The translations under genes were made by a program, and so were the position numbers. Below the pieces are notes generated by a model. That model saw nothing but the letters and a program-made list of their open reading frames with translations. It was not told the origin of the DNA and ran no database searches. A DNA stretch of 64,000 nucleotides from an uncultured bacterium (GTDB taxonomy: Bacteria > Babelota > Babeliae > Babelales > Babelaceae): positions 56,642 to 120,641 of the forward strand of contig CAWGPQ010000008.1 in NCBI GenBank assembly GCA_963824495.1. Direction: 5' to 3'. Below are positions 14,337-61,177 of this stretch, one piece after another (positions within the stretch are counted from its first letter, which is position 1; the number at the start of each line of letters is the position of its first letter).

Positions 14337-15368
14337 TTATCCTTCAACTACCTGTTGTTGGCATGCATACTTATTTTTTAAATAGGGTAGCGCTTTGTGA
14401 GCAATCTGTCGACCCCTAGCTGTTTTTTCAAGATATCCTTTGCGCAACAGAAAAGGCTCATAGACTTCTTCAAGCGTGGAGCTGTCTTCACCAATCAGTG
14501 AAGCAAGTGTTTCAAGCCCTACAGGCCCACCCTTAAAATTTTCGACTATAGTTTTTAAAATGAGATTATCAACACTACCCAAGCCATCGGCATCAATACC
14601 TAAAAAAGCGATAGCACGCCTGACAAGCTCCGTGTCCGCTTTATTGTTATTGTGAACTTGTGCAAAATCACGCACACGTCGTAAGATTTTTTTGGCAATG
14701 CGTGGAGTACCTCGTGAACAAGATGCTATATAAAGTGCTGATTCATGAGGTAACTCTATACCTAAAAAGCGAGCATTTTGTTGAACTATTGCTTGCAAGT
14801 CCTCGTCAGTATAAAAATCGAGCCGTTCCGTGATACCAAATCTACTGCGCAACGGAGCTGATAGCAAACCTGATCTGGTTGTTGCTCCGATAAGCGTAAA
14901 CGCTGCTATCGGCATATTAATCGATTGAGCTCCAACGCCTTGGCCAATAACAATATCAACACGAAAATGCTCCATAGCGCTATACAAAATTTCTTCAACA
15001 ACAATAGGCAGCCGGTGAATTTCATCAATAAACAACATGTCATGTGGAGTAAGACTCGAGAGAATAGCTACAAGATCACCTGTTCTTTCAAGCGTTGGGC
15101 CACTACAAATCTTAATACCAACCTGCATAACATGTGCCATAATTTGAGCAAGCGTTGTTTTACCCAACCCCGGTGGCCCTGATAATAAAAGATGATCAAG
15201 CGGTTCTCGTCGCACACGCGCAGCATCGGTATACAGCTTAAGTTTTTCTTTTAATTCCTTTTGACCTAAGTAATCATCGAAGCTTTTAGGGTGAAAGTCA
15301 CCTATATAATCTTCGTTAGTCTCTGGTAACGTTAATAATTGAATGGGCTCTTTTCTGTCATGGCTCAT
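14337..15368 (-). CDS. ruvB: Holliday junction branch-migration ATPase RuvB
   Basis: 343 aa with GPPGLGKTTLA and LFIDEIHRL, full-length RuvB pattern. Only 3 nt upstream of yebC, so probably one operon. Confidence 0.95.
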   Translation of the reverse strand: MSHDRKEPIQLLTLPETNEDYIGDFHPKSFDDYLGQKELKEKLKLYTDAARVRREPLDHLLLSGPPGLGKTTLAQIMAHVMQVGIKICSGPTLERTGDLVAILSSLTPHDMLFIDEIHRLPIVVEEILYSAMEHFRVDIVIGQGVGAQSINMPIAAFTLIGATTRSGLLSAPLRSRFGITERLDFYTDEDLQAIVQQNARFLGIELPHESALYIASCSRGTPRIAKKILRRVRDFAQVHNNNKADTELVRRAIAFLGIDADGLGSVDNLILKTIVENFKGGPVGLETLASLIGEDSSTLEEVYEPFLLRKGYLEKTARGRQIAHKALPYLKNKYACQQQVVEG

Positions 15369-22618: not shown

Positions 22619-23287
22619 ATGAATACGTATATTCTGGTATTAGCAATTTTTAGTAGCTTTCTGTTTAATTCGCATCAACTTGTGAGCATGCATGCTTCTA
22701 ACCCAGAGCAACTTGAGCTCAATGAGCAATTACTGAAGGCAGCAAAAGCAGGGAATAAAGATACCGTAATCTCTTTACTAGAGCAGGGTGCTGATGTTAA
22801 TCATGCTACTAACGATTATGGCCATATCGATATCGTAAGGTTACTTATAGAGCACGGTGCTCATGTTAATCATGATTTTCACCAAACTGCTCTTAAAATT
22901 GCAGCTCGAAAGGGATACATAGATATAGTTAAAATGCTTATAGAGCATGGCAAGGATGAAGCGAAGTATGATGCTCACCTAAACATTCGTAACCATCAAG
23001 CGTTAACCCCCCGGTCTCTTGCGCAAAAATATCGCAACCGCCAGGATATTATACGCATTCTTAAGCCTATGGCAGGCCAAGCACTGCTTGCTTTACTTTC
23101 AACTGAAGGTCAAGAACAACGCTTCGGTGTATTCTATACCAATAACGATACCAGTGGAACAGCACAGACTTTAGGTGTTTTACCTGACGGTATACTTCCC
23201 GCTGAAATTGCTGCCAATATTGCCCATTTCGTTGTTACTCAAAGACAACCTGAACAAGCACGATCAAACCCTAATTCCAACTCTTAG
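22619..23287 (+). CDS. Short, eroded secreted ankyrin-repeat protein with degenerate family-A tail
   Basis: Leader MNTYILVLAIFSSFLFNSHQLVS. Truncated ANK units (GHIDIVRLLIEHGAHVN, GYIDIVKMLIEHG). Tail LPAEIAANIAHFVV. Confidence 0.7.
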   Translation: MNTYILVLAIFSSFLFNSHQLVSMHASNPEQLELNEQLLKAAKAGNKDTVISLLEQGADVNHATNDYGHIDIVRLLIEHGAHVNHDFHQTALKIAARKGYIDIVKMLIEHGKDEAKYDAHLNIRNHQALTPRSLAQKYRNRQDIIRILKPMAGQALLALLSTEGQEQRFGVFYTNNDTSGTAQTLGVLPDGILPAEIAANIAHFVVTQRQPEQARSNPNSNS

Positions 23288-23683: not shown

Positions 23684-23759
23684 TGGTCGGGGTGGCCAGA
23701 CTCGAACCGACAACCCCTCGCTCCCAAAGCGAGTGCGCTACCAATTGCGCCACACCCCG
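23684..23759 (-). tRNA. tRNA-Pro (anticodon UGG)
   Basis: Reverse complement CGGGGTG-TG-GCGC-AATTGGTA-GCGC-A-CTCGC-TTTGGGA-GCGAG-...-TTCGAGT-...-CACCCCG-A-CCA. 7-bp acceptor stem with C1-G72, anticodon loop TT-TGG-GA, encoded CCA. Confidence 0.9.
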
Positions 23760-23813
23760 ACAATATATGTTAATTGTACGATCTTTTTCTTCTTGTTGCA
23801 AGCTTTTTTTAAG

Positions 23814-23890
23814 TGGGGTGAATGGTGGGATTCGAACCCACGGCCCCCAGAGCCACAATCTGATGCTCTACCAACTGAGCTACATCCACC
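23814..23890 (-). tRNA. tRNA-His (anticodon GUG) with encoded G-1 and CCA
   Basis: Reverse complement G-GTGGATG-TA-GCTC-AGTTGGTA-GAGC-A-TCAGA-TTGTGGC-TCTGG-...-GTGGG-TTCGAAT-CCCAC-CATTCAC-C-CCA. The extra 5' G pairs with C73, as expected for bacterial tRNA-His. Confidence 0.9.
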
Positions 23891-26777: not shown

Positions 26778-27921
26778 TTGGACGTGGTTAAAAAATTTAC
26801 AAAGTTAAATTTTTTGACAGCGCTTGCTGTAGGCCTCTTGTTGTGCAATAGCACGTTATTAAAAGCTATGGAGGCACAAGAACCAGCAAATCCTGCCAAC
26901 GAATTAATGCCGGTGCTGATATTAATCATGCTAATAGGTTCGGCGATACTGCTCTTATGAGGGCAGCTGATAAAGGAAACACCGATATGGTTAAATTACT
27001 TTTAAAGCATGATGCCGACGTTAACCTTGCTAGCTACGGGTATAAAACTACTGCTATACGGTGCTTACGTATGCAGCGGATATGGGGAATGTAGACCTAG
27101 TGAGATTGCTTGTTGACCATAATGCTAACGTTAATTATATTCAGGAGGAATTTGGCAATACGCCCCTTATTCTTGCTGCTTTTTGGAATCATTTGCATAT
27201 AGTTAGGGTGCTTATAGAGGCAGGCGCTCATGTTAATCATGTTGATAATCGAGGCGAAACTTCACTCCTAATAGCAGCTAAAAAGGGGCACACAAATATA
27301 ACTAAACTGCTCATAGAGCACGGTGCAAAATTACCTACTAACCCAGGACTTATTCAAATAATCAGAAATCAACTCGAAGAAACCATTGGCAATGACTTTA
27401 TCGTAGAGGTTATCCTTGGCAACACTGAGCAAATTACGCAGCTTTTAGAACAAGCTTCACCGGAGCTTACGTATGCACCAGATAGCACAGGCAAAACCGC
27501 ATTACATTGGGCTGCCGCTCAGGGTAACGATAATATAGTAAGACTATTACTTGATCATGGCTTTACCATTAATACCCAAGATGAAGAGGGTAATACACCA
27601 TTACATTTGGCAGCTCGTAATGGTAACTTAAGTACCGTTAAACTCTTACTTGCACGTGATGCTAACGCTACTCTTGTTAACCGAGACGGCCAGACCGCTC
27701 TAGCTCTTGCTCGCCAATACCATCACCCCGATGTTGTTGCTTTCTTAGAAGGAGAAGCTGGTCGTGCTGTGTTTGGCAGAGTGTCACGATTAGGTCGTGC
27801 AGGAGGCTTTGCATGGCAGCCTGAACCTGTAGGTGAGCTTCCAGCCAAAATTGCTCATATAATTGCCCAGTTTACGCAGGCCCCCGGCCACCCTATACTT
27901 CCATCGGGGTCAGTTTCTTAA
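26778..27921 (+). pseudogene. Disrupted family-A ankyrin-repeat gene spread over three reading frames
   Basis: The leader ORF 26778-26960 (MDVVKKFTKLNFLTALAVGLLLCNSTLLKAMEAQEP) is in frame 3. AGADINHANRFGDTALMRAADKGNTDMVKLLLKHDADVN starts at 26909 in frame 2 and ends in TAG. The long ORF 27061-27921 is in frame 1 and starts mid-repeat (LTYAADMGNVDLVRLL). The last piece carries the full C-terminal tail. Confidence 0.7.
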
Positions 27922-27964: not shown

Positions 27965-28750
27965 TTAAACGAAATCAAGTCTTTTTTTTAGGTTTCGCAT
28001 TCCTAACACAAGAAAAAAACCAGAAAAAAACACTATTGCCAACAGGCATAACCAAAAGTTGATATAACCTGTTTGGCCTAACATTGCTGCTCGAACTGCT
28101 TCAGTTATATATATCATGGGATTTAAAAGACTTATCAACGCAACGGTTGGTAGTACATGATAGAGTGCCATCCAGGAGAATTGAAAGCCACCCATAAACC
28201 ACATGGGAAAAATAAATCTCGCCCATACGCTGCCCAATTTATTCATGCTAGAAATTATACTGGAGGCCCATAAGACAAAACAGGCATAGAAAACACTTGA
28301 AAAAATCAAACTTAACAAAAGTTGAGCATAGAAGATTTGAGCAAGATCCATCTGCTTCCATAAAACAAGCTTGCCAATAGGGAACATAAGAAGCGAAAGT
28401 AAAAAATACACGATAAAATAATAAGCTGCTTTACTTATGATTGCTAGCCATGATGGTATGGGCAACGTCAGGCTATAGTTAATTACACGATCACCTTCAA
28501 AGTCTGAAACAAGATCTACAGCGTTTGCATAGAGCTCAAAGAGACCCGCTGATGCTAATACACCTGCTAATTGAAATGTACCGAAATCTGCTGATAAGCC
28601 AAAATATGGCATTATATAGCCCATAACTACTATAGTTAAGACTACCCAAATTGTTAGATCTATAAATTTGTCAAAAAATACCTGTTTAAAGACCATAAGA
28701 TCAGAATATATAAGCTCTTTAACCACGGTACCATAAAGTTTTTTATCCAT
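27965..28750 (-). CDS. ABC-2 type transporter permease
   Basis: 261 aa with about 6 hydrophobic segments, immediately downstream of the ABC ATPase. Confidence 0.75.
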   Translation of the reverse strand: MDKKLYGTVVKELIYSDLMVFKQVFFDKFIDLTIWVVLTIVVMGYIMPYFGLSADFGTFQLAGVLASAGLFELYANAVDLVSDFEGDRVINYSLTLPIPSWLAIISKAAYYFIVYFLLSLLMFPIGKLVLWKQMDLAQIFYAQLLLSLIFSSVFYACFVLWASSIISSMNKLGSVWARFIFPMWFMGGFQFSWMALYHVLPTVALISLLNPMIYITEAVRAAMLGQTGYINFWLCLLAIVFFSGFFLVLGMRNLKKRLDFV

Positions 28751-28774
28751 AAGTAAGTTCCAGGTAATATTACA

Positions 28775-29512
28775 TTAATTTTGGCCGGCTTTTAATAACT
28801 CGATAAACACATCTTCAAGATTTTTTTGTTTAAAATCTGACATAAGTTTATCAGGCGTATCGATAAGTTTGATTTGACCCCTATCTAAAATACATACCCG
28901 ATCAGAGAGCTTTTCTGCTTCATCAAGATAATGCGTTGTAAGCAAAACGGTTATGCCATCTTTCTTCAGATCTTTGATCACATCCCACAAGTTTCTTCTG
29001 ATATGTGGATCAAGACCAACGGTAGGTTCGTCCAAGATTATAAATTCGGGCTCATGTATCAAGCTCCGAGCTATCATAAAGCGCTGTTTATAACCACCTG
29101 AAAGAACCGATGGTTTTTCGTGCAAGTATTTTTGCAACTCAAATTGCTTACTTAATCGATCAATGCGAGTTTTACAATCCTGCTTTGAAAGTCCGTAAAA
29201 CTTGCCAGCAAACATAAGATTTTGCTTGAGGGTTAACATAGTATTTAAATTAGGTTTTTGTGGACAATAACCTAATTTAAGCCTAAAAGCAGGAATATCT
29301 TTATAAATTGACTCTCCGTTATATTCAATATCACCTTCTGTTGCGGGATGTAGGGTCGCAATGATCGAAGACAATGTTGTTTTTCCTGCGCCATTAACAC
29401 CCAGAAGACTTAAGATCTCGCCCTTATAGATAGCCAAATCTATGCCCTTTAAGACTTGAGATGTACCGTAACTTTTTTTAATATTTTTAACTTTTAATAA
29501 AATTTTTTGCAT
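28775..29512 (-). CDS. ABC transporter ATP-binding protein (ABC-2/DrrA-like exporter)
   Basis: Walker A GVNGAGKTT, signature LSGGYKQR, Walker B FIILDEPTVGLD. Confidence 0.9.
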   Translation of the reverse strand: MQKILLKVKNIKKSYGTSQVLKGIDLAIYKGEILSLLGVNGAGKTTLSSIIATLHPATEGDIEYNGESIYKDIPAFRLKLGYCPQKPNLNTMLTLKQNLMFAGKFYGLSKQDCKTRIDRLSKQFELQKYLHEKPSVLSGGYKQRFMIARSLIHEPEFIILDEPTVGLDPHIRRNLWDVIKDLKKDGITVLLTTHYLDEAEKLSDRVCILDRGQIKLIDTPDKLMSDFKQKNLEDVFIELLKAGQN

Positions 29513-35502: not shown

Positions 35503-36567
35503 TTAAGAAGGTGACCCTGTTTGAGGTATATATCCAGGAGCCAGAGCATACTGGGCAATTTGTCGAGCAACATCGGGTGGAAGAAGCTCACATGTAGGTG
35601 TTGACTGCCAGGCAAACCCTCCTGCGCGACCGGCTCTTGATAACCTACCAAATACAGCAATACCAGCTTCTCTTTGTAATAAGTCAACAATAGCAGAACG
35701 ATGATATTGGCGAGCAAGAGTTAGGGGTGACCCACCATACCGATTAACAAGAGTACCTTGAGCACCACATGCAACCAAAAGTTTAACAGTGCTCAAATTG
35801 TCATTGCAAGCAGCTACGTGTAACGGTGTGTTGCCATCCTCATCTTGTGCATCAATATCAAAGTCATGATTAAGCAACAGCCTTACTATAGCATCGTTGC
35901 CCTGAGCGACAGCCCAATGTAATGCTGTTTTACTAGCTTGATCTGTATTATATGCTTGTGGAGCTTGATCTACAAGCTCACCAATGCTCTTAGTATTGCC
36001 AAGAATAACCTCTACGATAGAGTCATTGTCAATTAATTTCCTGAGTATACCCCTGATTTTTTGAATGGGTTGTGAAATAGAAGGTAGTTTTGCTCCATGT
36101 TCTATAAGCAATCTAACTGTTTCTGTCTTTCCGTAATCAGCTGCCAACCAAAGAGCAGTATCGCCATTATTATTAGTGTGATTAATATCAGCGCCTGCTT
36201 CTATAAGCATTCTCGCTATTTCTGTATGTCCCCAAAGAGCTGCCAAAATAAGAGCAGTATCGCCATGCCTATCGGCCTGATTAACATTTGCGCTATGTTC
36301 TATAAGTATTCTAACCACTTCTGCATGTCTGGCTGCAAACATGCAAGCAGTCCAACCACCCATATCGGTACAGTTAACATCAGCACCTGCGCTAAGAGCA
36401 TCTTTTACCGCTGTAAGGTTGCCCTCATCGGCGGCTTGAACTAGCACGTCGTTAGGATGACGACCTGCTTGCTCAAGCATCATGCATTCTAATGGCACAG
36501 TATGAGCCAGCCATAGTCCCACAGCAAGCACTGATACAATATGTAATTTTGTAATAATTTTAATCAC
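35503..36567 (-). CDS. Secreted ankyrin-repeat protein, family-A tail (GTG start preferred)
   Basis: GTG at 36567 with GAGG 9 nt upstream gives VIKIITKLHIVSVLAVGLWLAHT, collinear with MIKITIKLLTISLWL of 43603-45012. ANK repeats. Tail AVFGRLSRAGRAGGFAWQ...LPPDVARQIAQYALAPG. Confidence 0.85.
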   Translation of the reverse strand: MIKIITKLHIVSVLAVGLWLAHTVPLECMMLEQAGRHPNDVLVQAADEGNLTAVKDALSAGADVNCTDMGGWTACMFAARHAEVVRILIEHSANVNQADRHGDTALILAALWGHTEIARMLIEAGADINHTNNNGDTALWLAADYGKTETVRLLIEHGAKLPSISQPIQKIRGILRKLIDNDSIVEVILGNTKSIGELVDQAPQAYNTDQASKTALHWAVAQGNDAIVRLLLNHDFDIDAQDEDGNTPLHVAACNDNLSTVKLLVACGAQGTLVNRYGGSPLTLARQYHRSAIVDLLQREAGIAVFGRLSRAGRAGGFAWQSTPTCELLPPDVARQIAQYALAPGYIPQTGSPS

Positions 36568-36715: not shown

Positions 36716-37411
36716 TTAACTGAGCTGGATTCGCTCAATGATTGCTTGCATAATTTTATAATACTGTTCGGCATCCTGGCTAATTTCTTGTGCAAGCGCA
36801 ATATCATATGCATGAGCAGACAAATTTCTCATGTCTATCATATCAATAAGATTTTTGTATTCATCGGGCGCAAGCAGTTCAAGATCAAAGCAGCTTTTTA
36901 ATACGCTTTTTGGGCTTGCAATAGGCTCTATACCATGCTTTTTGTTCAAATATTCTTTCAAAAACCTCCAGAATGTATCCGCTGCATATTCAAAGCGCTT
37001 AATCACGCCATCACGAAGCTCTTCGTAGTAATAATCTGATGACTTATATTGATTAAGCTTAGACAAAGCACCACCAAGAGCAGCTAAAATTTTTATTAAT
37101 GTCGTATGGCGAAGCGTTAATCCGCCAATAACATCTTCTTGAGCAAGTATTTCACGCATTTCTTCGGGTATAGCGTTAAGATCAAGCACATTGATTTTAA
37201 AAGGTATGTGTGAAGCGTTAAGCATGTCACGTATCTCACCAACATCACGTCGTGGCAACTTTCTGCCTGCATCAAGAGCAACATCTATATCTGGTCTTTC
37301 TACGTGAGCACCATGAGTTCGTGCTATAAATAGATACACACGTATATCTGGTATAAGTGCCTTAATAACCCGTACAATTTTTTGTTGAGTACCTTCATCA
37401 ATATGCACCAT
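36716..37411 (-). CDS. Fused minimal nucleotidyltransferase (MNT) + HI0074-type HEPN-like substrate-binding domain
   Basis: ATG at 37411 with AGGAAA upstream. The N-terminal half has an NTase-like ...HVERPDIDVALDAG. The C-terminal half RDGVIKRFEYAADTFWRFLKEYL...MIDMRNLSAHAYD matches the NTase_sub_bind/HEPN R-x4-H motif. The 54 upstream codons in the ORF track are AT-rich and implausible. Confidence 0.7.
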   Translation of the reverse strand: MVHIDEGTQQKIVRVIKALIPDIRVYLFIARTHGAHVERPDIDVALDAGRKLPRRDVGEIRDMLNASHIPFKINVLDLNAIPEEMREILAQEDVIGGLTLRHTTLIKILAALGGALSKLNQYKSSDYYYEELRDGVIKRFEYAADTFWRFLKEYLNKKHGIEPIASPKSVLKSCFDLELLAPDEYKNLIDMIDMRNLSAHAYDIALAQEISQDAEQYYKIMQAIIERIQLS

Positions 37412-37605
37412 GACGTTTCCTAGCTTATCATATCTTAGGTAATCTATTAATAATATTAATAGTAGCATATACCTGGGCTTGTTATCTAGAAGAATTATTA
37501 AAAGATATACTACTGTTGCCGAAAGCAATAAGAACCTGTTAGTATACTCGTGGTGATAGTTAAAGAAAATCAACCGATAAACAATATGTAAATAAGGAGC
37601 CTACT

Positions 37606-40376: not shown

Positions 40377-40892
40377 TTAGTGTGGACACAGTATCTTATC
40401 AAAGAGCTGATTCCCCGATTCGTCATAGCCATCAAGACAACCATCTCCACAGCTACATACATATCTGGTAGTAGTTATATTTTTAGAAATATTTGGAAGA
40501 TATTCTTTACAGCTTGCACCATAGATCAGCCGTTTCCCATCTACATCAACACTACCATCTGGTTGAATAGTAATAGCACGATCAAGACAGAGCAGAGGGA
40601 GTGACGCCAACCCCAATCTCGAAACAGAAGTTGGCTTATTCGAGTCTAGCCCTATCGATTCTAAGCAATAGAGTTTTTGATATCCTGTTGTCGAAAATAT
40701 ATGATTTTGAACACCAGCATCAACAGTTTCAGTGTGATCTGCATTAGGGCATGCACCAAAATGAAAGTTAACCTTTACCTGTTTGTTCATAGTATTAGAT
40801 ATGGTATACGTATAAGCTTGAACTTGAGAGATAAAGCTACCAAGATAGGCTATACTCAGCATCCACCATAATAACCACAAGTTTTTATGCAC
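40377..40892 (-). CDS. Small Cys-rich secreted protein (tandem copy 1; GTG start at 40892 or ATG at 40931)
   Basis: Collinear with 41037-41552, including the upstream non-coding sequence. The paralogue's ATG aligns with GTG at 40890-40892. 8 Cys, including CSCGDGC. Confidence 0.65.
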   Translation of the reverse strand: MHKNLWLLWWMLSIAYLGSFISQVQAYTYTISNTMNKQVKVNFHFGACPNADHTETVDAGVQNHIFSTTGYQKLYCLESIGLDSNKPTSVSRLGLASLPLLCLDRAITIQPDGSVDVDGKRLIYGASCKEYLPNISKNITTTRYVCSCGDGCLDGYDESGNQLFDKILCPH

Positions 40893-41036
40893 ACTCTTAC
40901 TCTCTTTAATAATAATTAAAATTTTATTCACTAATATCAGTATAGATATTTACTTATAGGAATTTCAAGAGTACTATAAGCACTACGGCGAACAGCCTAC
41001 ACTGAGCAGCAACATCACGGTGAGTCCACGGTGGAG

Positions 41037-41552
41037 TCACCGTGGGCACTGTATCTTATCAAACAGCAGATTTCCTGATTCATCATAGACATCAAGACAG
41101 CCATCCCCACAACTACATGCGTATCTGGCAGGCACAGGCTTAGAACTATTTGAACGATATTCTTTACAACTTGAGCCATAGATGAGCCGTGCCCCATCTA
41201 CATCAACACTACCATCTGGTTGAATGGTAATAGTCCGGTCAGAGCAAAGTACAGTACCAAATAATGTCGATGCCCATAATTTCGCAACAGAAGTTGGCTT
41301 ATTCGAGTCTAACCCTATTGATGCTAAGCAACAGGGCTTTTGATACCACTTAGGCGAAAATATATGATTTTGAACACCGGCATCAATTGTTTCAGTTTGA
41401 TCTGGATTAATGCAGGCAGCAAAATGAAAGTTAACTTTTACTTGTTTGTTCATAGTATTAGATATGGTATACGTATAAGCTTGAGCTTGAGAGATAAAGC
41501 TACCAAGATAGGCTATACTTAGTATCCGCCATAACCATAAGTTTTTATTCAT
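41037..41552 (-). CDS. Small Cys-rich secreted protein (tandem copy 2)
   Basis: Leader MNKNLWLWRILSIAYLGSFISQAQA, then YTYTISNTMNKQVKVNFHF..., CSCGDGCLD and ...FDKIQCPR. Confidence 0.7.
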   Translation of the reverse strand: MNKNLWLWRILSIAYLGSFISQAQAYTYTISNTMNKQVKVNFHFAACINPDQTETIDAGVQNHIFSPKWYQKPCCLASIGLDSNKPTSVAKLWASTLFGTVLCSDRTITIQPDGSVDVDGARLIYGSSCKEYRSNSSKPVPARYACSCGDGCLDVYDESGNLLFDKIQCPR

Positions 41553-43602: not shown

Positions 43603-45012
43603 TTAAGAACGTGATACTGCTGGAGATACATGACCAGGGGCCTGCGCAAACTGGGCAATTATATCAGCTATCTCAGACGGAAGAGGTTGCTCCTGACCTA
43701 CTGGTTGCCATGCAAGCTGTCCCGTACGACCTAATCGTGACACTCTACCAAATACAGCACGACCAGCTTCTCTTCCTAATAAGTCAACAATAGCAGAACG
43801 ATGATATTGGCGAGCGAGACCCAGAGGAGTCTGACCGTCTCGGTTAACAAGAGTAGCGTTAGCACCACGCGCAAGTAAGAGTCTAACGGTACTCAAGTTA
43901 CCATTACGAGCTGCTAAGTGTAACGGCGTATTACCCTCTACATTTCGTAGGTTAATATTTGCACCAAAATCAAGTAATAGTTTTATTATGTCGTCATGTC
44001 CTTGAGCAGCAGCCCAATGTAACGCTGTCATACCATGACTATCTGGATGGTTAATGTTAATTTGAGGGGGTATCATTGGGGCCAGTATGGCATAAGAAGC
44101 AAGCAGTTTACGCAATTGAGCAATCAACGATTTGGTCTGAGGTGATTGTGGTTGAGCCTGGGGTAAAGTAGAAAGTAATACTACCACGCGCTTGGTATCG
44201 CCCCGGGCGGCCGCATAAGCAAGCTCATTACCTTCAAATACAGCACTTAAAGCTTGCCCTGCGTATTCTGGATTGTGGAATCTTAAGATTCCCCTTTGAG
44301 CATATCTTTGAAGATCCCCTTCAGTTGGTATTGTTGCCCCATGCTCTATAAGCAATCGAGCAGTTGCCAGCAATTGAGCGTAAAATGAATCCGGTAGTCG
44401 CGTCATGTTTATAAGACTGAGTATAAGAGCATCATTGCCCCCATCATTGGTGTGATTAATATCAGCTCCACGCTCTATGAGCATTTTAACTATGTCTATA
44501 TATCCCCTTGTCGCTGCCCATATAAGAGCAGTGTTGCCTTCATGATCAGCATGATTAATATCAGCACCAGCTTTTAAAAGCAATCTAACTGTCTGTGTAT
44601 AGCCCAACATTGCTGCCTCCATAAGGGCACTGTGACCAAAGTTATCAGCCTCATTAGGGTCAGCACCAGCTTCTATAAGTATTTTAACTATATTTATGCG
44701 TCCCTTATCCATTGCAAATAGAAGGGGATAACCACGATTAGCATCAGCTTTATGCTCTAAAAGCACTCTAACTATACCTTCATGTCCATCTCTAGCTGCC
44801 AATGAAAGAGCTGTCATGTCCTCATTAGTGGCATGATTAACGTCAGCACCCTTGCTAAGTGCAGCTTCGACTCCTTCAAGATTTCCACTTTTAACTGCAT
44901 TTATCAATTCTTGGTTGGCATCAAGATTTTGCTGAACTTCCATACATTCCAAGAGCAGGGCATTACATAGCCACAGGCTAATCGTGAGTAATTTTATAGT
45001 AATTTTAATCAT
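43603..45012 (-). CDS. Secreted ankyrin-repeat protein, family-A tail
   Basis: Leader MIKITIKLLTISLWLCNALLLEC, about 9 ANK repeats. Tail AVFGRVSRLGRTGQLAWQ...LPSEIADIIAQFAQAPG. Confidence 0.85.
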   Translation of the reverse strand: MIKITIKLLTISLWLCNALLLECMEVQQNLDANQELINAVKSGNLEGVEAALSKGADVNHATNEDMTALSLAARDGHEGIVRVLLEHKADANRGYPLLFAMDKGRINIVKILIEAGADPNEADNFGHSALMEAAMLGYTQTVRLLLKAGADINHADHEGNTALIWAATRGYIDIVKMLIERGADINHTNDGGNDALILSLINMTRLPDSFYAQLLATARLLIEHGATIPTEGDLQRYAQRGILRFHNPEYAGQALSAVFEGNELAYAAARGDTKRVVVLLSTLPQAQPQSPQTKSLIAQLRKLLASYAILAPMIPPQININHPDSHGMTALHWAAAQGHDDIIKLLLDFGANINLRNVEGNTPLHLAARNGNLSTVRLLLARGANATLVNRDGQTPLGLARQYHRSAIVDLLGREAGRAVFGRVSRLGRTGQLAWQPVGQEQPLPSEIADIIAQFAQAPGHVSPAVSRS

Positions 45013-45267
45013 AGCATAATCCTTTGTATAACCATTTATAATATATTTCTATTTTTTATTATGCGAAACAACAAGCGATAAAGTCAACAAAATTGAAAGC
45101 ACCTTAAAGCTGCTCTTTTGTAAGCTATTTTAGATTAAGGTAAATGCATTGCCTATAATACCCACCCAAATAGAGATGAAGGGAACCTTTGATTTATTTT
45201 AAAGTGCTCGATATACTTAATGGCCGTTAAGCACTCTATTTCTCACCTTTTATCTTTAAGGGAAAAC

Positions 45268-46380
45268 ATGAACGTATGCCGAAAGATAACTACTCTTGTC
45301 GCAACGTGCTCTCTTGTCAACAGTGGCCTGATGATCGCACAGACTGAACAACCCGAGCACGAACTACCAATCGCCGCTGTTATACAAGAAGCCCCTACAA
45401 TTAACGAACCAGCCCTCTCATCAACAATAACTCCCGAGGCACAACAGGTAACGCCTTTGGTGGGAGCTATTCACGAACGTGACCCATTAAACCCAGATGC
45501 CCTGCTTGACCACGGTATCGCCCATTTTGTACCCGAAGTAGCAATAGAGCAACATAACGCAGTGGTTATTGACGAGCCAGCTCTTGAACCAACAACAATA
45601 CCTACGGTAACAAGTGAAGCACAGCCTGAGAGCGCTCCAGTAGAAAGCGAAAGCCCTGAAGCCATCACCATCGAACACGAAGTAGTATTTTCGCAAGAGA
45701 CAGTAAACCAAGAAGTCGCTCCAAGCATTATCACGCATGAAACAGTCGTGATTGATGAACCAGTTCTTGAACCAATAGTACCTGCCGTAACCACGGTGAC
45801 TACTGAAGCACAGCCCGAAGCTCCTGCTCAAGAACAACCGCTTACTAATGAGCTTATTGAAGCGGTAAAAAGCTTTGACCACGAGCGCTTAATTGACCTA
45901 CTAGAACAAGACATAGATACCAATACACCTGGTGTACGTGGCATAAGTGCCCTTACCTGTGCAGCAGCTCTGGGAAATAATCAAGGAGCAGAAATTCTTA
46001 TAGGGCATGGTGCGAATGTTGACCTTGTTGATGAATATGGTAATACACCGTTGCATTGGGCAGCTGCCAATGGTCAATTACCACTTGTTGGCCTCTTGGT
46101 TAGTAACGGTGCTGATGTTACTCATACCAATAGGTATGGCAATACTGCTTTTGATTGTGCTCGTAATAATAATCATGCCGATATCGCTGATTTCTTCGCT
46201 GCCAATTATCCAGCAGCATTTTCGACTACCCTCAAAGCTACAGATCAAGTAAAAGCTATGACCAGCGAACTTGACGAAGTCGATTTTGACAATGAATATG
46301 AAGAATATCGGGATATTTCTGATATAGATTTTGATGCAGACGAAGATTTTGTAAGCGATATGAACGATACTGATTATTAA
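45268..46380 (+). CDS. Secreted protein with Pro/Glu/Thr-rich tandem repeats, 2-3 ANK repeats and an acidic tail
   Basis: ATG at 45268 with AAGGGA upstream gives the leader MNVCRKITTLVATCSLVNSGLMIA. Repeat VVIDEP(A/V)LEP...(T/S)EAQPE occurs twice. ANK units GISALTCAAALGNNQGAEILIGHGANV and GNTPLHWAAANGQLPLVGLLVSNGADV. The tail is rich in D/E. Confidence 0.75.
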   Translation: MNVCRKITTLVATCSLVNSGLMIAQTEQPEHELPIAAVIQEAPTINEPALSSTITPEAQQVTPLVGAIHERDPLNPDALLDHGIAHFVPEVAIEQHNAVVIDEPALEPTTIPTVTSEAQPESAPVESESPEAITIEHEVVFSQETVNQEVAPSIITHETVVIDEPVLEPIVPAVTTVTTEAQPEAPAQEQPLTNELIEAVKSFDHERLIDLLEQDIDTNTPGVRGISALTCAAALGNNQGAEILIGHGANVDLVDEYGNTPLHWAAANGQLPLVGLLVSNGADVTHTNRYGNTAFDCARNNNHADIADFFAANYPAAFSTTLKATDQVKAMTSELDEVDFDNEYEEYRDISDIDFDADEDFVSDMNDTDY

Positions 46381-54816: not shown

Positions 54817-55074
54817 AGTATTGAATTCTAGCGTGCTTTCGTAGTTCCCTTAAGTAACCATACCAGGAACTCATGTAGTTATACTAGTATACCATAAAAA
54901 GGGCAGTATATGAAATTAACAAGCTGACGGGATAAGCCATGCCACTGCGCTGCTCAGTGCGCCATTCAAAAATAAATCTTTGTCAATTTTTATTTGAAAA
55001 TTATTCAAAAGCTGCTATCATTAACTCATATATTTGTTTTTAACTTGATTATACCTGATTATGAAGGATATTTC

Positions 55075-57036
55075 ATGAAATTAGCGATATTTTTGAGCTT
55101 AACAGTGCTTGCTTTGGGTACTTCACCCTTAGGTTATGCTATGGATACCAATGAAAATACTCATGAAAATACCGGTGAGCAACCAACTAAAAAACAAAAA
55201 CTTGAAGAGTCCGATAGCCCACCCAGGGGTCCTATCGATTCGCCTATCGATCCATTATCCGATGAGCAAATAGCACAGATTGAGCTTGAAGAAAAAGCAG
55301 ATCAGTATTTCCAAGCAGTGGTAAATGATGATATTGAATTAGTCAAAGATCTCTTAAACGAAGGATTCCCCGTTGATTATATAGATGCAACTACTGGTAC
55401 AACAGCATTTTTTACCGCAGCGGAGGAAGATCAACCAGACTTGATAGCCTTGCTAGCTGAGCATGGGGCAAACGTCAATTTTAGACATACCCATGGTGAC
55501 ACTGCTTTACATCGCGCAGCACGCAAAAATAATCATGACCTAATAGTTGATTTAGCTATGCATGGTGCAGATGTTACTCTTACGAATAATTATGGCGAAC
55601 TTCCCCTGCACATTGCCGCTAGACGAACATCTAGTGATACGCTTGGAACACTTCTTGCCCTGACTCCACAGCACTTACTTAATGCAGAGAATCTTGATGG
55701 TCGAACACCTCTTGCACAGGCAATTCGTGCTGGGAGTCGTCGAAACGTTGAAGTACTTCCTCAATACAATGTTCGTATAGAACAAACTCTGGAAGAACAG
55801 ATACAGCAAATTTTGCATGCTGAACCTCTTACGTACCATACAATACTAGGACATAGAGCGCAGGTGGAAACAATTTTGCGCTCAAGGGCGATCATACCCG
55901 CACAAGCTGAAGAAATGACACCATTACACTGGGCTGCTGCTCGAGGCCACAGTGATATTATAGAATTACTCCTCAACGCACAAGCACAAATCAACGCCCA
56001 AGATGAAAATGAAATGCGGCCATTACATCTTGCTGCACAAAACGGCCATACCAACCTTATCCCTCTCTTGATCCAGCATGGGGCAGATCCTCATGCACAA
56101 GATTCCGATCATTATACACCTTTACATCATGCAACGCTTAGAGGACATACCCCTACTGCTCAAGCTCTCATCGAAGCTGGTGCGCACGTTAATATTGCTC
56201 TAGTGCCTGAACAACCACTGCACGTTGCCGTACGATTTAATCAACTTCAGCTCATAGCACTGCTTGTGCTCCATCACGCAGATATTGATGCAAGAAATGA
56301 GCCTGGCATGACACCGCTTCATCTTGCTATTGGCAGTAATAATCTTAACGTTATTCGGGCATTGCTCCATAATCAAGCAAACGTTAACGTTCAAACTAAC
56401 GATGGTCAAACTGCGGCAGACTATGCTCAAGCTCATCATAGAACTGAAGCTCTGGAGCTCATTAATCATCCTGAAGTACCAGCTGCAGTATATTTGACAT
56501 TGCTAAGGGACCGAGAGCCTCTTCTTGCCCAAACAGCCGAAGCTCTGACTGAAACCGATGGGTTAGGCACAAATCCACTGAGCCTTGCTATCCAAATGGG
56601 TTATGATGATGTAACGTGCCCTATAGTGAACCGTGCACCTAATCTTGTTCATCAAGCTGACCGTCAAGGATGGACGCCACTGCATTACGCAGCAGCTCGA
56701 GGTAATGATACTGTGTTACAATTCTTGCTTGCACGTAACGCGGCTGCAACACAGGTAACACATAATCGGCAAACCCCAGCAGATGTAGCACAAGCACATA
56801 ATCATCTGACAACATTAGAACTTCTCAGAACCCATGTATTACAGCCCTTTGTTGAACGTTTATTTAGAGCTGGACAACCAATCGGACACCTTAGAGAAAT
56901 ACCGTCAGACCTAGCCTCAGATGATACTCCATCACCAATAGCAATTGCAGGCGGAGATAGGAATGTTATGGCAACCATTACCGCATTTCTTGTGCATCAG
57001 ACTATGTACCATAACCCAAATAATAACAACAATTGA
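55075..57036 (+). CDS. Large secreted ankyrin-repeat protein, family-B tail (tandem array member 1)
   Basis: ATG at 55075 with AAGGA upstream. Leader MKLAIFLSLTVLALGTSPLGYA, then MDTNE...PTKKQKLEE, more than 12 ANK repeats. Tail PFVERLFRAGQPIGHLRE...SPIAIAGGDRNVMATITAFLVHQTMYHNPNNNNN. Confidence 0.85.
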   Translation: MKLAIFLSLTVLALGTSPLGYAMDTNENTHENTGEQPTKKQKLEESDSPPRGPIDSPIDPLSDEQIAQIELEEKADQYFQAVVNDDIELVKDLLNEGFPVDYIDATTGTTAFFTAAEEDQPDLIALLAEHGANVNFRHTHGDTALHRAARKNNHDLIVDLAMHGADVTLTNNYGELPLHIAARRTSSDTLGTLLALTPQHLLNAENLDGRTPLAQAIRAGSRRNVEVLPQYNVRIEQTLEEQIQQILHAEPLTYHTILGHRAQVETILRSRAIIPAQAEEMTPLHWAAARGHSDIIELLLNAQAQINAQDENEMRPLHLAAQNGHTNLIPLLIQHGADPHAQDSDHYTPLHHATLRGHTPTAQALIEAGAHVNIALVPEQPLHVAVRFNQLQLIALLVLHHADIDARNEPGMTPLHLAIGSNNLNVIRALLHNQANVNVQTNDGQTAADYAQAHHRTEALELINHPEVPAAVYLTLLRDREPLLAQTAEALTETDGLGTNPLSLAIQMGYDDVTCPIVNRAPNLVHQADRQGWTPLHYAAARGNDTVLQFLLARNAAATQVTHNRQTPADVAQAHNHLTTLELLRTHVLQPFVERLFRAGQPIGHLREIPSDLASDDTPSPIAIAGGDRNVMATITAFLVHQTMYHNPNNNNN

Positions 57037-57093: not shown

Positions 57094-59076
57094 ATGAAAG
57101 TATCACACAAACGCATTCTCTTACTATTGACTCTGATGAGCTCACCCTTAGGCTATGCAATGGATACCAATGAGCCACCGGCCAAAAAACAAAAAATCGA
57201 AGATGCTATCAAAGATCCTCAAGAAGGCACTTCTGATAGCGGGTCGGCATATCTTTTTAGTGAAGAAGAAATACAAAGCCATAGTGAAGAACTGTTTGCC
57301 GCAGCTGCCGACGGTGATGTCGAAAAACTTTATTGTCTCTTAACGAGAGGAATGCCTATTGATCTTGTTGATGAAAACCGGGAAATAGGCAGAACGGCGC
57401 TTGCCATAGCTGCTCGAGCAGGCCACCAGAAAGTAGTTGAGCTTCTTATTCACAATGGAGCTGATATTGATACTCAAGATACCAATGGCGCAACGCCGCT
57501 TCATCTCGCTTTACTCAACGATCACGTTCATGTCATAGGAACATTAGAATTTTATGGAGCTAATATCACACTTACTGACAATAATGGCAACCTTCCTCTT
57601 CACCTTGCCGCTGCAGGAGCAGATATAAATATTTTTTACAGCCTTCTTCAGGCTACTCCAGCACATGCGCTTAATACACAAAATAACGCTGGACAAACAC
57701 CACTTGCTCTTGCACTTGAAAGAAATACTATTCAACATGTTAGATTACTTCTTCAATACAATGCTACAGCAAGCCACTTAGAAGGCCCATTAGCCACCAT
57801 TATTTTAGCAGGGCTAGAGCAGCCTTCAGCGCATCAACGTATCTTGTACGACATTCTTATAGGCAATACAGAACATGCCAATCAACTTCTTCAAACAGAA
57901 GATCCAGCAGAGTATATCAACGCACAAGATGAGCTTGGTATGACGATTCTTCATTGGGCCGCAGCTCGAGGCCATAGTAATATCATAGAATCACTTCTCA
58001 ATAAGCAAGCAACCATCGATGGCCAGGATACACAGGGCATGCAGCCGCTACACTTTGCTACACAAAATGGTCATCGTATTATCACAGAGCTATTACTTGC
58101 TCATAGAGCACCCGTTAACGCACGCGATAGCCATGGGCAGACACCTCTCCATTATGCAATACTGAGAGGAGATAGAGAGAGTGCCCAAACTTTGATCGCA
58201 GCCCGGGCAGATATTAATGCACAAAATGCTCGTGGCCAAAGTCCTTTACACCTGGCAGCATTAACAGGAAACCTAGATCTCACGCTACTTCTTATTGATC
58301 ATGGTGCACGTATTAATACTCATGCTGGTAATGGCTTTACACCGCTAACTGTTGCTATTCCTCAAAATAACCTGAATATTATGCGAGCATTGCTTTATCA
58401 TAATGCTGATATAACTATACCCAATAATAATGGTCACACTGCAGCTGAATTTGCCGGGCAGCTCGGCAGACATGATGCCCGTGCTCTCTTAATGAACCCT
58501 ATGATACCACCATTATTGTATGCTGTTATGACACAAGATGAAGAACTAGCGCGTCGTCTTCTAGAGCAAGAAAACATAGATATTGCCGCTACTGACGGTA
58601 TAGGCACTACCGCGTTAAGTATGGCTGTTCAGATGGGTAACGATAATTTGGTAAACCTTCTACTCAAGCACGGAGCACGGGCTCACTTGGTAAATAGAGC
58701 AGATCACGAGGGATGGACACCCCTTCATTATGCTGCCCGTGGAGGCCAGCTTGAAACTATGCACCTATTACTTAATCATCATGCTCATGTAAGAGCTCTC
58801 ACAGAGACTGGTGAAACGGCTGAAGAGCTGGCACGAGCAAACAACCAATGGGAATGCCTAGAGCTTCTAAGGGCTCATGGACTACAGCCTTTTCTTGCAC
58901 GTTCATTCAGAGCTGGAGAACCAATCGAATATCTTAGAGAAACACCGTCAAACCTATCCTCAAACGATACCAGATCGCCAATAGCCATTGTAGGGGGAGA
59001 TGAGAATATCATGGCAATCATTGCTACATTCCTTGTTCATCAGACTATGTACCATAACCCAAATAATAATAATTAA
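57094..59076 (+). CDS. Large secreted ankyrin-repeat protein, family-B tail (tandem array member 2)
   Basis: AAGGAA RBS. Leader ...LMSSPLGYA, then MDTNEPPAKKQKIED and ANK repeats. Tail PFLARSFRAGEPIEYLRE...IATFLVHQTMYHNPNNNN. Confidence 0.9.
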   Translation: MKVSHKRILLLLTLMSSPLGYAMDTNEPPAKKQKIEDAIKDPQEGTSDSGSAYLFSEEEIQSHSEELFAAAADGDVEKLYCLLTRGMPIDLVDENREIGRTALAIAARAGHQKVVELLIHNGADIDTQDTNGATPLHLALLNDHVHVIGTLEFYGANITLTDNNGNLPLHLAAAGADINIFYSLLQATPAHALNTQNNAGQTPLALALERNTIQHVRLLLQYNATASHLEGPLATIILAGLEQPSAHQRILYDILIGNTEHANQLLQTEDPAEYINAQDELGMTILHWAAARGHSNIIESLLNKQATIDGQDTQGMQPLHFATQNGHRIITELLLAHRAPVNARDSHGQTPLHYAILRGDRESAQTLIAARADINAQNARGQSPLHLAALTGNLDLTLLLIDHGARINTHAGNGFTPLTVAIPQNNLNIMRALLYHNADITIPNNNGHTAAEFAGQLGRHDARALLMNPMIPPLLYAVMTQDEELARRLLEQENIDIAATDGIGTTALSMAVQMGNDNLVNLLLKHGARAHLVNRADHEGWTPLHYAARGGQLETMHLLLNHHAHVRALTETGETAEELARANNQWECLELLRAHGLQPFLARSFRAGEPIEYLRETPSNLSSNDTRSPIAIVGGDENIMAIIATFLVHQTMYHNPNNNN

Positions 59077-59155
59077 TAGAACTATAGTGCCTGCTCTAAA
59101 AAAATATGCGGGCACCTTAAGCATGTCACTCGAGCATGCTGTTAAGGAATACGAC

Positions 59156-61177
59156 ATGAAAGTACTACACACAATTACTCTCTTACTTGTAACTCTCATT
59201 GGGTCAACCTTAGGCTATGCTATGGATACCAATGAAAATATTCATGAAAATACCAGTGAACCACCAACCAAAAAACAAAAAACAGAAGATACTATACAAG
59301 ATGCTCAAGAAGGCACTTCTAATAGCAGATCGACATATCTTTTTAGCCAAGAAGAAATACAAGGCCATAGCGAAGAACTGTTTACCGCAGCTGCCGATGG
59401 TGATGTCGAAAAGCTTTATATTCTCTTAACGAAAGGAATGCCTGTTGACCTTGTTGATAATAACCAAGAAATAGGCAGGACGGCGCTTGCCATAGCTGCT
59501 CGAGCAGGCCAGCAGGAAGCAGTTGAACTTCTTATTCGCAATGGAGCCAATATTGACACTCAAGATACCAATGGCGCGACACCGCTTCATCTTGCTTTGC
59601 TCAACGGCCACATTAACTTACTACAAACACTGTGCTTTTATAGGGCTGATACTACACTTGCTGATAATAATGGCAATCTTGCCCTTCACCTTGCCGCTAC
59701 ACAAGCAAATGTAGTTACTTTTTACGGTCTTCTTCAAGCTACCCCGGCAAACTTGATCAATGCACAAAATAACGCTGGACAAACACCACTTGCTCTTGCG
59801 CTTGAAAGAAATAATATTGGAACTGCTCAGGTGCTTTTTCGACATAACGCTGCAATAGGTAACTCAGCAAATCAATTAGCCGCAATTATTGCAGACGGGC
59901 ATGTAGAGCACCTTCAAACGGATCAACAGCTCTTGTATTATATCCTTATAGGCGACATAGAACGCGCCAATCATCTTCTTCAGACGGAAGATCCACTAAA
60001 CTATATCGATACAGTAGATGATCTTGATATGACGATTCTTCATTGGGCTGCTGCTCGAGGTTATCATGACGTGGTAGAGTTCCTTCTCCGCGCAGAAGCA
60101 GATATTGACAACGCGGATATAGAAGGTATGCAGCCGCTACACTTTGCTGCACAAAATGGTCATCGTACTATCATGAAGCTATTACTTGCTCATGGAGCAC
60201 TCGTTAACGCACGCGATAGACATGGACAGACACCTCTTCATTATGCGATACTAAGAGGAGACAGGGATAGTGCTGAAATTTTGATTGCAGCCCATGCAGA
60301 TATTAATGCACAAAATGCTCGTGGCCAGAGCTCTTTACACTTAGCAGCATTAACTAGAAACTTAGACCTTGCGCTATTTCTTATCAATCGTAATACAAGT
60401 ATCAATGTCCGTGATAATGAGGGTTTTACACCATTAACCGTTGCAATCATCAATGACAACTTGACCGTCATACGAGCACTCCTCTATTATAATGCTGATA
60501 TAACTGAGCCCAGCAATGATAGTTACACTGCAGCTGAATTTGCTGAGCAGCTCGGCAGACATGATGCTCGTGCTCTTTTAATGAACCCTATCATACCACC
60601 ATTATTGTATGCTGTTATGACACAGAATGAAGAACTAGTGCATCGTCTTCTAGAGCAAAAAAATATAGATATCGCTGCTACTGACGGTATGGGCACTACA
60701 GCGTTAAGTATGGCTGTTCAGATGGGTAACGCTAATTTGGTAAACCTTCTACTCAAGTATGGGGTACAGATGCATCAGACCAATTTAGCAAATAGGGCCG
60801 ATTCTCAAGGGTTTACGCCACTTCATCATGCTGCTGGCAGGGGTCAGCCTGAAATTGTACGCGCATTGCTTAATCATGGTGCTCACGCAAGGGCTTTAAC
60901 ACGCAATAACGAAACTCCTGCGGAGCTTGCACAAGCAAACAACCAATCGGAATGCTTAGAGATTCTGAGGGCTCATATACTACGGCCCTTTCTTGCCCGT
61001 TCATTTAGAGCTGGAGAACGAATCGAACATCTTAGAGAAACACCGTCAAACCTACCCTCAAACGATACCAGATCGCCAATAGCAATTGCAGGAGGAGATG
61101 AGAATATCATGAAAATCATTGCCACATTTCTTGTTCATCAGACTATGCACCATAACCCAAATAATAACAATAATTGA
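59156..61177 (+). CDS. Large secreted ankyrin-repeat protein, family-B tail (tandem array member 3)
   Basis: ATG at 59156 with AAGGAA upstream matches the starts of members 1 and 2. The ORF-track start at 59000 would overlap member 2. Very similar to member 2 along its whole length. Confidence 0.9.
   Translation: MKVLHTITLLLVTLIGSTLGYAMDTNENIHENTSEPPTKKQKTEDTIQDAQEGTSNSRSTYLFSQEEIQGHSEELFTAAADGDVEKLYILLTKGMPVDLVDNNQEIGRTALAIAARAGQQEAVELLIRNGANIDTQDTNGATPLHLALLNGHINLLQTLCFYRADTTLADNNGNLALHLAATQANVVTFYGLLQATPANLINAQNNAGQTPLALALERNNIGTAQVLFRHNAAIGNSANQLAAIIADGHVEHLQTDQQLLYYILIGDIERANHLLQTEDPLNYIDTVDDLDMTILHWAAARGYHDVVEFLLRAEADIDNADIEGMQPLHFAAQNGHRTIMKLLLAHGALVNARDRHGQTPLHYAILRGDRDSAEILIAAHADINAQNARGQSSLHLAALTRNLDLALFLINRNTSINVRDNEGFTPLTVAIINDNLTVIRALLYYNADITEPSNDSYTAAEFAEQLGRHDARALLMNPIIPPLLYAVMTQNEELVHRLLEQKNIDIAATDGMGTTALSMAVQMGNANLVNLLLKYGVQMHQTNLANRADSQGFTPLHHAAGRGQPEIVRALLNHGAHARALTRNNETPAELAQANNQSECLEILRAHILRPFLARSFRAGERIEHLRETPSNLPSNDTRSPIAIAGGDENIMKIIATFLVHQTMHHNPNNNNN

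Follow-up and report, generated by a model that had tools for sequence, protein, structure and literature searches.

A C-terminal tail on exported ankyrin proteins of a Babelaceae bacterium is probably a family-specific module rather than a sorting tag

Does the conserved C-terminal tail carried by a set of exported ankyrin (ANK) proteins in an uncultured Babelaceae bacterium act as a sorting tag, or does it belong to a single family of proteins? The question is raised by the gene at 43603-45012 on the reverse strand of a 64,000-nucleotide stretch of contig CAWGPQ010000008.1 (assembly GCA_963824495.1, forward-strand positions 56,642 to 120,641; this whole stretch is hereafter the window, and coordinates refer to it unless another locus is named), whose product combines a predicted signal-peptide leader, ankyrin repeats and the tail in question. 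Bacteria of this phylum, the Dependentiae, are obligate intracellular parasites of protists in which around a tenth of the genes encode exported ankyrin proteins. An original prediction made from the window held that eight of its proteins share one tail, which would work together with the Sec leader as a new C-terminal sorting tag. Broadly speaking, our results argue otherwise: the tail is likely an effector module specific to one family, as opposed to a general sorting tag.

The tail-bearing genes of the window comprise four with the tail in question (A-type), one short relative and three tandem paralogues with a different ending (B-type), and the translations of all eight open reading frames (ORFs) match those quoted originally. 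They are listed here with the tail and helix of the gene that prompted the study:

43603-45012, reverse strand: A-type gene holding the finding, 469 residues, with a Sec-type leader, an N-terminal ANK block, a linker, a C-terminal ANK block and the tail
43606-43764, reverse strand: A-type tail of the 43603 gene, residues 417-469, GRAVFGRVSRLGRTGQLAWQPVGQEQPLPSEIADIIAQFAQAPGHVSPAVSRS; the stop codon is at 43603-43605
43645-43683, reverse strand: conserved amphipathic helix LPSEIADIIAQFA of the 43603 gene, residues 444-456, resembling F-box helix 1
1087-2499, reverse strand: A-type gene, 470 residues, identical to public protein P0006; tail at 1090-1227
26778-27921, forward strand: A-type gene with at least two frameshifts; leader ORF 26778-26960, ANK fragment 26957-27094, body 27061-27921
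35503-36567, reverse strand: A-type gene, 354 residues from a GTG at 36567; tail at 35506-35664
22619-23287, forward strand: short degenerate family member, 222 residues; eroded tail at 23075-23284, with LPAEIAANIAHF kept and ARSNPNSNS at the end
54994-57036, forward strand: B-type tandem paralogue 1, public protein P0024, probable start at an internal ATG giving MKLAIF...; B-type tail at 56839-57033
57094-59076, forward strand: B-type tandem paralogue 2, 660 residues, public protein P0022; B-type tail at 58882-59073
59000-61177, forward strand: B-type tandem paralogue 3, probable start at an internal ATG giving MKVLHTIT...; B-type tail at 60980-61174

Ankyrin families were the only Pfam matches of these proteins (Ank_2 at 54-307 bits in all eight, against a gathering cut-off of 27.3), and the four A-type proteins are collinear over their full length, from the leader through the N-terminal ANK block, an 'ILGNT' linker and the C-terminal ANK block to the tail. 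The 27061 gene has an intact tail at 27760-27918 despite being split over three reading frames, and is either a recent pseudogene in which the tail still survives or the product of an assembly error.

Profile searches within the window bear on whether these genes carry one tail or several. A hidden Markov model (HMM) of the four A-type tails, run against the six-frame translation, returned exactly the genes at 1087, 27061, 35503 and 43603 (E-values 4e-24 to 6e-29), a match among four genes that is far beyond chance. The next match was the 22619 gene at an E-value of 0.18, with the three tandem genes at about 54, and an HMM of the three B-type tails recovered those three only. What had been presented as eight proteins with one tail is in fact a set of 4 + 1 + 3, so that the grouping stands for five genes and in part for the three tandem ones. 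The description of 22619 as an eroded form was correct: because its alignment with the public protein P0014 stays collinear through the tail (BLASTP 7e-18), and ARSNPNSNS closes both sequences, we regard it as a true, eroded member.

The B-type ending, by contrast, cannot be detected as a related form of the same domain by either hhalign or HMMs. Profile-profile comparison of A with B gave a probability of 0.5% (E-value 0.13, 11 columns), and HMMs built without the B sequences ranked them first among the non-members and at the right position, yet only at E-values of 1-3. BLASTP of the 1087 and 57094 C-termini produced an ungapped alignment of 69 residues, from the last repeats through ...LLSQYLGQAVFARISRAG and ...LLRAHGLQPFLARSFRAG, respectively. 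Collinearity between the two types is limited to the proximal element of the tail (...QAVFARISRAG vs. ...QPFLARSFRAG), which by this likeness is probably homologous in both. Intermediate endings also exist, namely ...VSMVSKAGRDNKLDKILPLLPEKNIMRHIISYLMGKAQAETTS in the ankyrin gene adjoining that of P0018 (locus L059, 4231-5139) and MPEEIIARIVGFLPNPNSNS in P0020. We infer that the A, B and intermediate variants are diverged descendants of one ancestral C-terminus, a step that for the distal B helix goes beyond statistics. The F-x-R-x-x-R-x-G core originally put forward is present, and turns out looser than claimed once this wider family is compared.

Outside the window, HMMER was run exhaustively against 1.84 billion cluster representatives and gave 20 matches, 18 of them real (P0010 and P0015 were rejected as tail carriers, being low-complexity repeat artefacts). 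Every one of the 18 clusters is an ankyrin protein, the tail is solely C-terminal in 16, and two are the window's own (P0002, the 27061 product, and P0006, the 1087 product). All are singletons except P0019/P0021, which represent one gene called from two starts. The matches that were traced (P0006, P0009, P0018 and P0019/P0021) come from one sequencing run, ERR11596056, and P0009 lies on one 269,110-bp contig with the three B-type proteins. P0001, P0005 and P0016, for which exact look-ups gave no record, may belong to the same or to a sister genome. The three B-type proteins have no relatives beyond their tandem copies among 5.8 billion proteins. No tail relative was found by a tail-pattern scan of 185,579 GTDB species genomes, or in JGI metagenomes, which were scanned twice, using the A and B tail alignments, and the A and B tail HMMs gave nothing below an E-value of 1.9 in 56 loci (17 from Dependentiae) that hold only one ANK gene. 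A word-indexed search with the four-tail alignment also returned no tail relative, from an index that evidently misses these proteins, since the exhaustive scan of representatives found them. Because the traced matches share a single run and the genome and metagenome scans yielded no relatives, the tail is apparently confined to one genome, or at most to a very narrow lineage.

Pairwise identity among the tails is 51-71%, vs. 39-73% for the adjacent ANK block, and rough Nei-Gojobori estimates of dN/dS (non-synonymous over synonymous substitution rates, with dS at 0.4-2.7) are 0.20-0.88 for the tail (median about 0.6) and 0.16-0.58 for the ANK block (median about 0.28). The tail is thus under purifying selection, though no better conserved than its flank. 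It is also not strictly C-terminal: P0001 (538 residues) has an internal copy at 355-399, followed by three more ANK repeats and a terminal copy, so that a unit made of three repeats and the tail is tandemly duplicated, and P0020 has an internal copy at 196-245 with more repeats after it. At locus L059 (3241-3955), fragments of an IS605 OrfB / Cas12f-like TnpB adjoin two ANK family genes of the same organism, and mobile elements may contribute to the expansion of the family.

The tail itself measures 45-55 residues, of which Ala, Gly and Pro make up 40% (16% A, 13% G, 11% P). Near-invariant over 21 copies are F5, G12, G16, [FL]18, W20, P23, L30-P31, [IV]34, A35, [IV]38, A39, Q40, [FY]41, A44-P45-G46 and G53-S54. 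Three parts can be proposed: a proximal basic, Gly-rich element (AVFGRxSRxGRxGxFxW) that would continue the last ankyrin helix, a short amphipathic helix (LPxEIAxxIAQ[FY]) and a Pro/Gly/Ser-rich end. The helix had been placed at the extreme C terminus; instead, 10-16 Pro/Gly/Ser-rich residues (consensus APGHIPPAGSPS) come after it, or else NPNSNS or NPNNNN. The observation that the tail has neither a transmembrane helix nor a basic end was confirmed, since its ends are S/P/G- or N-rich and its sole hydrophobic stretch is the amphipathic helix of 12 residues (hydrophobic moment 0.50 in the 43603 gene, 0.32-0.61 over the family).

AlphaFold2 (AF2) models of the last 145 residues, built from a 16-sequence alignment, give the repeats predicted local distance difference test (pLDDT) scores above 90 and the tail 33-63, with the last ANK helix extending through 'GRAVF' and a separate helix at SEIADIIAQFA. 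Modelled at full length, the 43603 protein has a tail mostly below 50, whose helix (residues 446-455, pLDDT about 45-51) shows no docking. Over the models, the short tail helix falls at LPSEIADIIAQF and tail pLDDT spans 31-63, with no helix after residue 455. As modelled, the tail looks like a flexible extension with one short amphipathic helix and not like a folded domain, and this is the usual form of peptides that fold on a partner. Promoter/terminator, Rfam and tRNA scans returned nothing bearing on the tail.

At the other end of the protein, an N-terminal leader had been reported on all eight gene products. It is in-frame in seven, the exception being 27061, whose leader sits in the separate ORF 26778-26960. 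By simple tests, the predicted leaders have a K/R n-region, a 12-residue core with Kyte-Doolittle values of 1.8-2.8 and a small residue at -1. Since most ANK proteins of Babela massiliensis (79 of 126; PMC4378268) and Chromulinavorax destructans (78% of 98; PMC6561590) carry signal peptides, the combination of signal peptide and ankyrin repeats is already known biology and the norm of the phylum, in which type II is the sole secretion system recognised (PMC4378268, PMC6561590, PMC4776705).

Several further observations concern these N-termini. A conserved Met directly follows the predicted signal-peptidase site (LEC/ME, MS/MH, VS/MH and GYA/MD, the slash marking the site; 44935-45012, 2425-2499, 22619-22700, 57094-57165 and relatives), and the public gene calls P0009, P0017, P0019 and P0020 start exactly at this residue, so that a leaderless isoform made by internal initiation there is conceivable. 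Upstream of P0009 (locus L058, about 3500-3600), a leader-like ORF (MKRNYYKNSIFMAHVLMPVFF...) is read in another frame than the annotated start MEHTH..., with a T8 run at the break, which reflects either a sequencing error in the homopolymer or a frameshift removing the signal peptide. By eye, a basic motif resembling a nuclear localisation signal, PP[AT]KKQK, closely follows the leader of each of the three B-type proteins (about 57172-57200 and equivalent sites), with similar motifs in P0018 (PPRKKQK) and in the 1087 protein (RPTKKAKYEG, residues about 281-290); such motifs would hint at nuclear targeting in the host.

What, then, might the tail do? The likeness of its helix to F-box helix 1 had been rated weak, and in our view deserves more weight in the light of a chimera test and of the viral protein CP77, with membership of the F-box family not established. 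Measured against the pattern LPxE[IL]xxxI[LF]xxL, the helix has L-P in 20 of the 21 copies, E/D in 17, and I/V at the two following hydrophobic positions in 20 and 21, respectively. For the chimera test, tail helices of 13-14 residues took the place of helix 1 in the human Skp2 F-box and the resulting chimeras were scored by Pfam, alongside 13 controls (two full shuffles, one ANK helix, eight natural LP-initiated 13-mers from the window and two LP-preserving shuffles):

Native Skp2: 65.0 bits with PF12937, 44.7 bits with PF00646
A-type helices: 48.1-51.2 bits with PF12937, 30.8-31.4 bits with PF00646
22619 helix: 52.8 bits with PF12937, 33.7 bits with PF00646
L059 variant: 52.3 bits with PF12937, 38.4 bits with PF00646
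P0020 variant: 56.4 bits with PF12937, 40.2 bits with PF00646
B-type helix: 42.3 bits with PF12937, 26.3 bits with PF00646
13 controls: 37.1-42.1 bits with PF12937, 20.3-25.0 bits with PF00646

The A-type and variant helices thus score 6-15 bits above the best control and 9-17 bits under the native helix (48.1/30.8 bits for the 43603 helix with PF12937/PF00646), with the P0020 and L059 variants nearer to the F-box consensus than the A-type. As far as such scores go, this shows that the tail helix is compatible with F-box helix 1 beyond a bare 'LP', and homology is not implied. The layout is also that of PRANC-type proteins: an intracellular parasite encodes a multi-copy family in which an ankyrin array is followed by a C-terminal element. 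There are precedents for so short an adaptor: most Skp1 contacts are made by helix 1 and the loop preceding it, poxvirus F-boxes keep two helices only, cowpox CP77 still binds Skp1 with an F-box effectively reduced to helix 1, and Orientia Ank effectors, which exist in multiple paralogous copies, combine ankyrin repeats with a C-terminal truncated F-box and recruit host SCF1 (all PMC4353913). Other candidates were tried: BC-box/SOCS-box, PP1 RVxF, 14-3-3, CaaX and tail-anchor motifs were dropped by eye, the conserved residues not fitting the consensus patterns, and a circularly permuted F-box (RVSR...W before LPxEI) was set aside as numerology.

Taken together, these results suggest that the tail is the C-terminal module of a single family of ankyrin effectors exported through Sec, a family of paralogues that is lineage-specific and has expanded heavily, and that the tail was inherited by descent along with the whole protein rather than acting as a portable sorting signal. 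The proteins would be exported via Sec and then probably through the type II system of the phylum, after which the ankyrin blocks might bind host targets while the tail helix served as docking peptide for a host factor, with Skp1/SCF as the candidate, as for poxvirus ANK/PRANC proteins, cowpox CP77 and Orientia Anks. That the tail is, all in all, a family-specific partner-docking tail is the reading towards which we lean, with a confidence slightly short of even; that its helix docks Skp1 specifically, as a minimal mimic of F-box helix 1, is the leading candidate for the partner, and a rather doubtful one.

A number of points weigh against docking, and against Skp1 in particular. No F-box, F-box-like or PRANC match (PF00646, PF12937, PF09372), and indeed no match to any other family, was found by Pfam in 20 tails at E<=10 (eight window tails of 60-80 residues, then 12 tails including the variants of P0014, P0020 and L059), and PDB sequences gave no match to the tail, only noise at E-values above 1. 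F-box helices 2 and 3 are absent, with Pro/Gly/Ser sequence of the APGHIPPAGSPS type after the helix, and the hydrophobic residue (L/F) of F-box position 10 is an invariant Ala in the tail. The chimera test speaks to compatibility rather than homology, and it relied on a Skp2 sequence supplied by us (recognised by Pfam at 65 bits); in it the B-type helix did no better than the controls, and the resemblance as a whole amounts to 10-19 bits over 13 residues, chosen post hoc, which would fail a family-wide multiple-testing correction. The low AF2 confidence, which fits a flexible docking peptide, could merely reflect a shallow alignment (14-16 sequences). Finally, arrival of the proteins in the host cytosol is an assumption borrowed from published work on other Dependentiae.

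Among the rival explanations, the original one would make the tail a second-step export or sorting signal, read by the type II system or by another translocation step at the outer or host membrane. It can point to the leaders, in place on seven of the genes and eroded on the remaining one, to the usually C-terminal position of the tail and to the fact that Dependentiae have a type II system only, without known substrate signal (PMC4378268). These points are countered by the cargo, which in 18 of 18 clusters is an ankyrin protein of one family, by signal-peptide ANK genes of the same window that lack the tail (17959-20268 and 45220-46380), by the internal copies in P0001 and P0020, and by the absence of any transmembrane segment or basic end. 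Moreover, the tail was not found in the other Dependentiae genomes searched, though those export ANK proteins, and the 64-kb window holds no secretion, sortase-like or protease gene with which it would co-occur. A type I C-terminal secretion signal does not fit either, as leaders are present and the adjacent ABC genes (27965-29512) are of the ABC-2 type and not HlyB-like. With its narrow distribution, the tail belongs to one paralogue family only and is no more conserved than its surroundings, the outcome that the original prediction had itself named as speaking against a tag. A new C-terminal sorting tag working with the Sec leader is accordingly not supported; we consider a role in sorting improbable, and even more so the stronger claim that a subset of Sec-exported ankyrin effectors in Dependentiae carries a new kind of signal, for second-step export or host delivery, by which they would cross the outer membrane or the host-derived membrane.

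The main rival to a docking tail is that there is no dedicated function at all, the tail being an extension of the C-terminal cap plus a disordered remnant, inherited by a recently expanded family and conserved through descent and mild constraint. This would agree with its restriction to one family and one lineage, with a dN/dS roughly double the value for the neighbouring ANK block, with the low AF2 confidence and a last ANK helix that simply runs on into 'GRAVF', and with a tail that is eroded in 22619 and takes a different form in the B genes. However, no pair reaches a dN/dS of 1 (dS being 0.4-2.7), residues F5, G12, G16, P23, L30, P31, A35, A39, A44, P45 and G46 are 90-100% conserved in 21 copies that are 41-68% identical overall, the motif is kept in the internal P0001 copy, and a neutral disordered tail would not be expected to hold an LP-capped amphipathic helix in register. 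We therefore regard a functionless remnant as unlikely, while giving it serious consideration. It is improbable that the helix instead acts within its own protein, as a pseudo-ligand autoinhibiting the ankyrin groove, or inserts in-plane into a host membrane: its amphipathic character (hydrophobic moment 0.32-0.61), the flexible tether of 20-25 residues before it and the common binding of extended or helical peptides by ankyrin grooves would suit such roles, but the full-length AF2 model leaves it undocked (pLDDT about 45-51, <50 around), and with ~12 Ala-rich residues it would bind membranes weakly.

The tail is without a described family. In kind, it is a variant of a known theme, in which ankyrin effectors carry short adaptors at the C terminus, and it has so far been seen in one genome. 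If its helix docks Skp1, it would be the first sign in Dependentiae of the ankyrin plus minimal-F-box strategy of poxviruses and Orientia and another independent arrival at a one-helix F-box, and the ~13-residue peptide would offer a concrete bait with which to isolate host partners. Otherwise, the tail just marks a gene family that expanded at species level, and is of little general importance. Under either outcome it is no evidence for a new sorting system.

As to the genomic surroundings, the ANK genes are dispersed among housekeeping genes (DnaE, YebC, RuvB at 14337-15368, FtsW, UvrA, MutS, ArgS, GrpE and LepA). The RuvB protein reaches at best 70% identity to Babeliales/Dependentiae (TM6) MAGs, and the window is accordingly chromosomal DNA of a member of this phylum. 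Genes for tRNA-Pro(TGG) and tRNA-His(GTG) lie at 23684-23889 (reverse strand), just downstream of the eroded member 22619, and an ORF with a nucleotidyltransferase substrate-binding / HepT-like domain of toxin-antitoxin type (36716-37573, reverse strand) adjoins the 35503 ANK gene. The signal-peptide protein at 7575-10232 (forward strand) joins a GH81 endo-beta-1,3-glucanase to a CBM56 beta-glucan-binding module, a protein one would not expect of an intracellular bacterium with a reduced genome and perhaps a hint at a cell-wall or storage glucan of the host; its gene is overlapped by an ORF at 10174-11235 that encodes ANK repeats. Two tandem paralogous genes at 40377-40931 and 41037-41552 (both reverse strand) encode small secreted Cys-rich proteins without Pfam match (...SFISQ[VA]QAYTYTISNTMNK..., ending in ...CSCGDGCLD.YDESGN.LFDKI.CP).

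Among known systems, the C-terminal sorting tags (the C-terminal domain of type IX secretion, LPXTG, PEP-CTERM and the exosortase/rhombosortase tags) are alike in pairing an N-terminal Sec signal with a conserved C-terminal element. Unlike them, the tail has no transmembrane helix, basic end or domain of beta-sandwich size, and it sits on a single cargo family, with internal copies and with no cognate machinery found in the window. The ankyrin proteins of Babela massiliensis and Chromulinavorax destructans share the phylum, the Sec leader with ankyrin repeats and the large families (126 and 98 members), whereas the descriptions in their papers contain no conserved C-terminal tail. Orientia tsutsugamushi Anks and Legionella AnkB resemble the present proteins as ankyrin effectors of intracellular bacteria, and theirs recruit SCF1 by a truncated F-box, with motifs that, in contrast to the tail, are recognisable by F-box/PRANC models as annotated in the papers. 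These effectors are delivered by type I or type IV secretion systems and are not known to use Sec leaders, and the F-box of AnkB is N-terminal. Against the poxvirus ANK/PRANC proteins, CP77 included, the tail differs in having no Pfam PRANC/F-box match, a ~27-residue basic, Gly-rich element before the helix and a Pro/Gly/Ser-rich stretch in place of helix 2, on proteins with predicted Sec leaders and a Skp1 binding that is here putative; the two are alike in their N-terminal ankyrin repeats followed by a short C-terminal adaptor, in their multi-copy paralogue families and in the LPxEI-type helix with which the adaptor starts.

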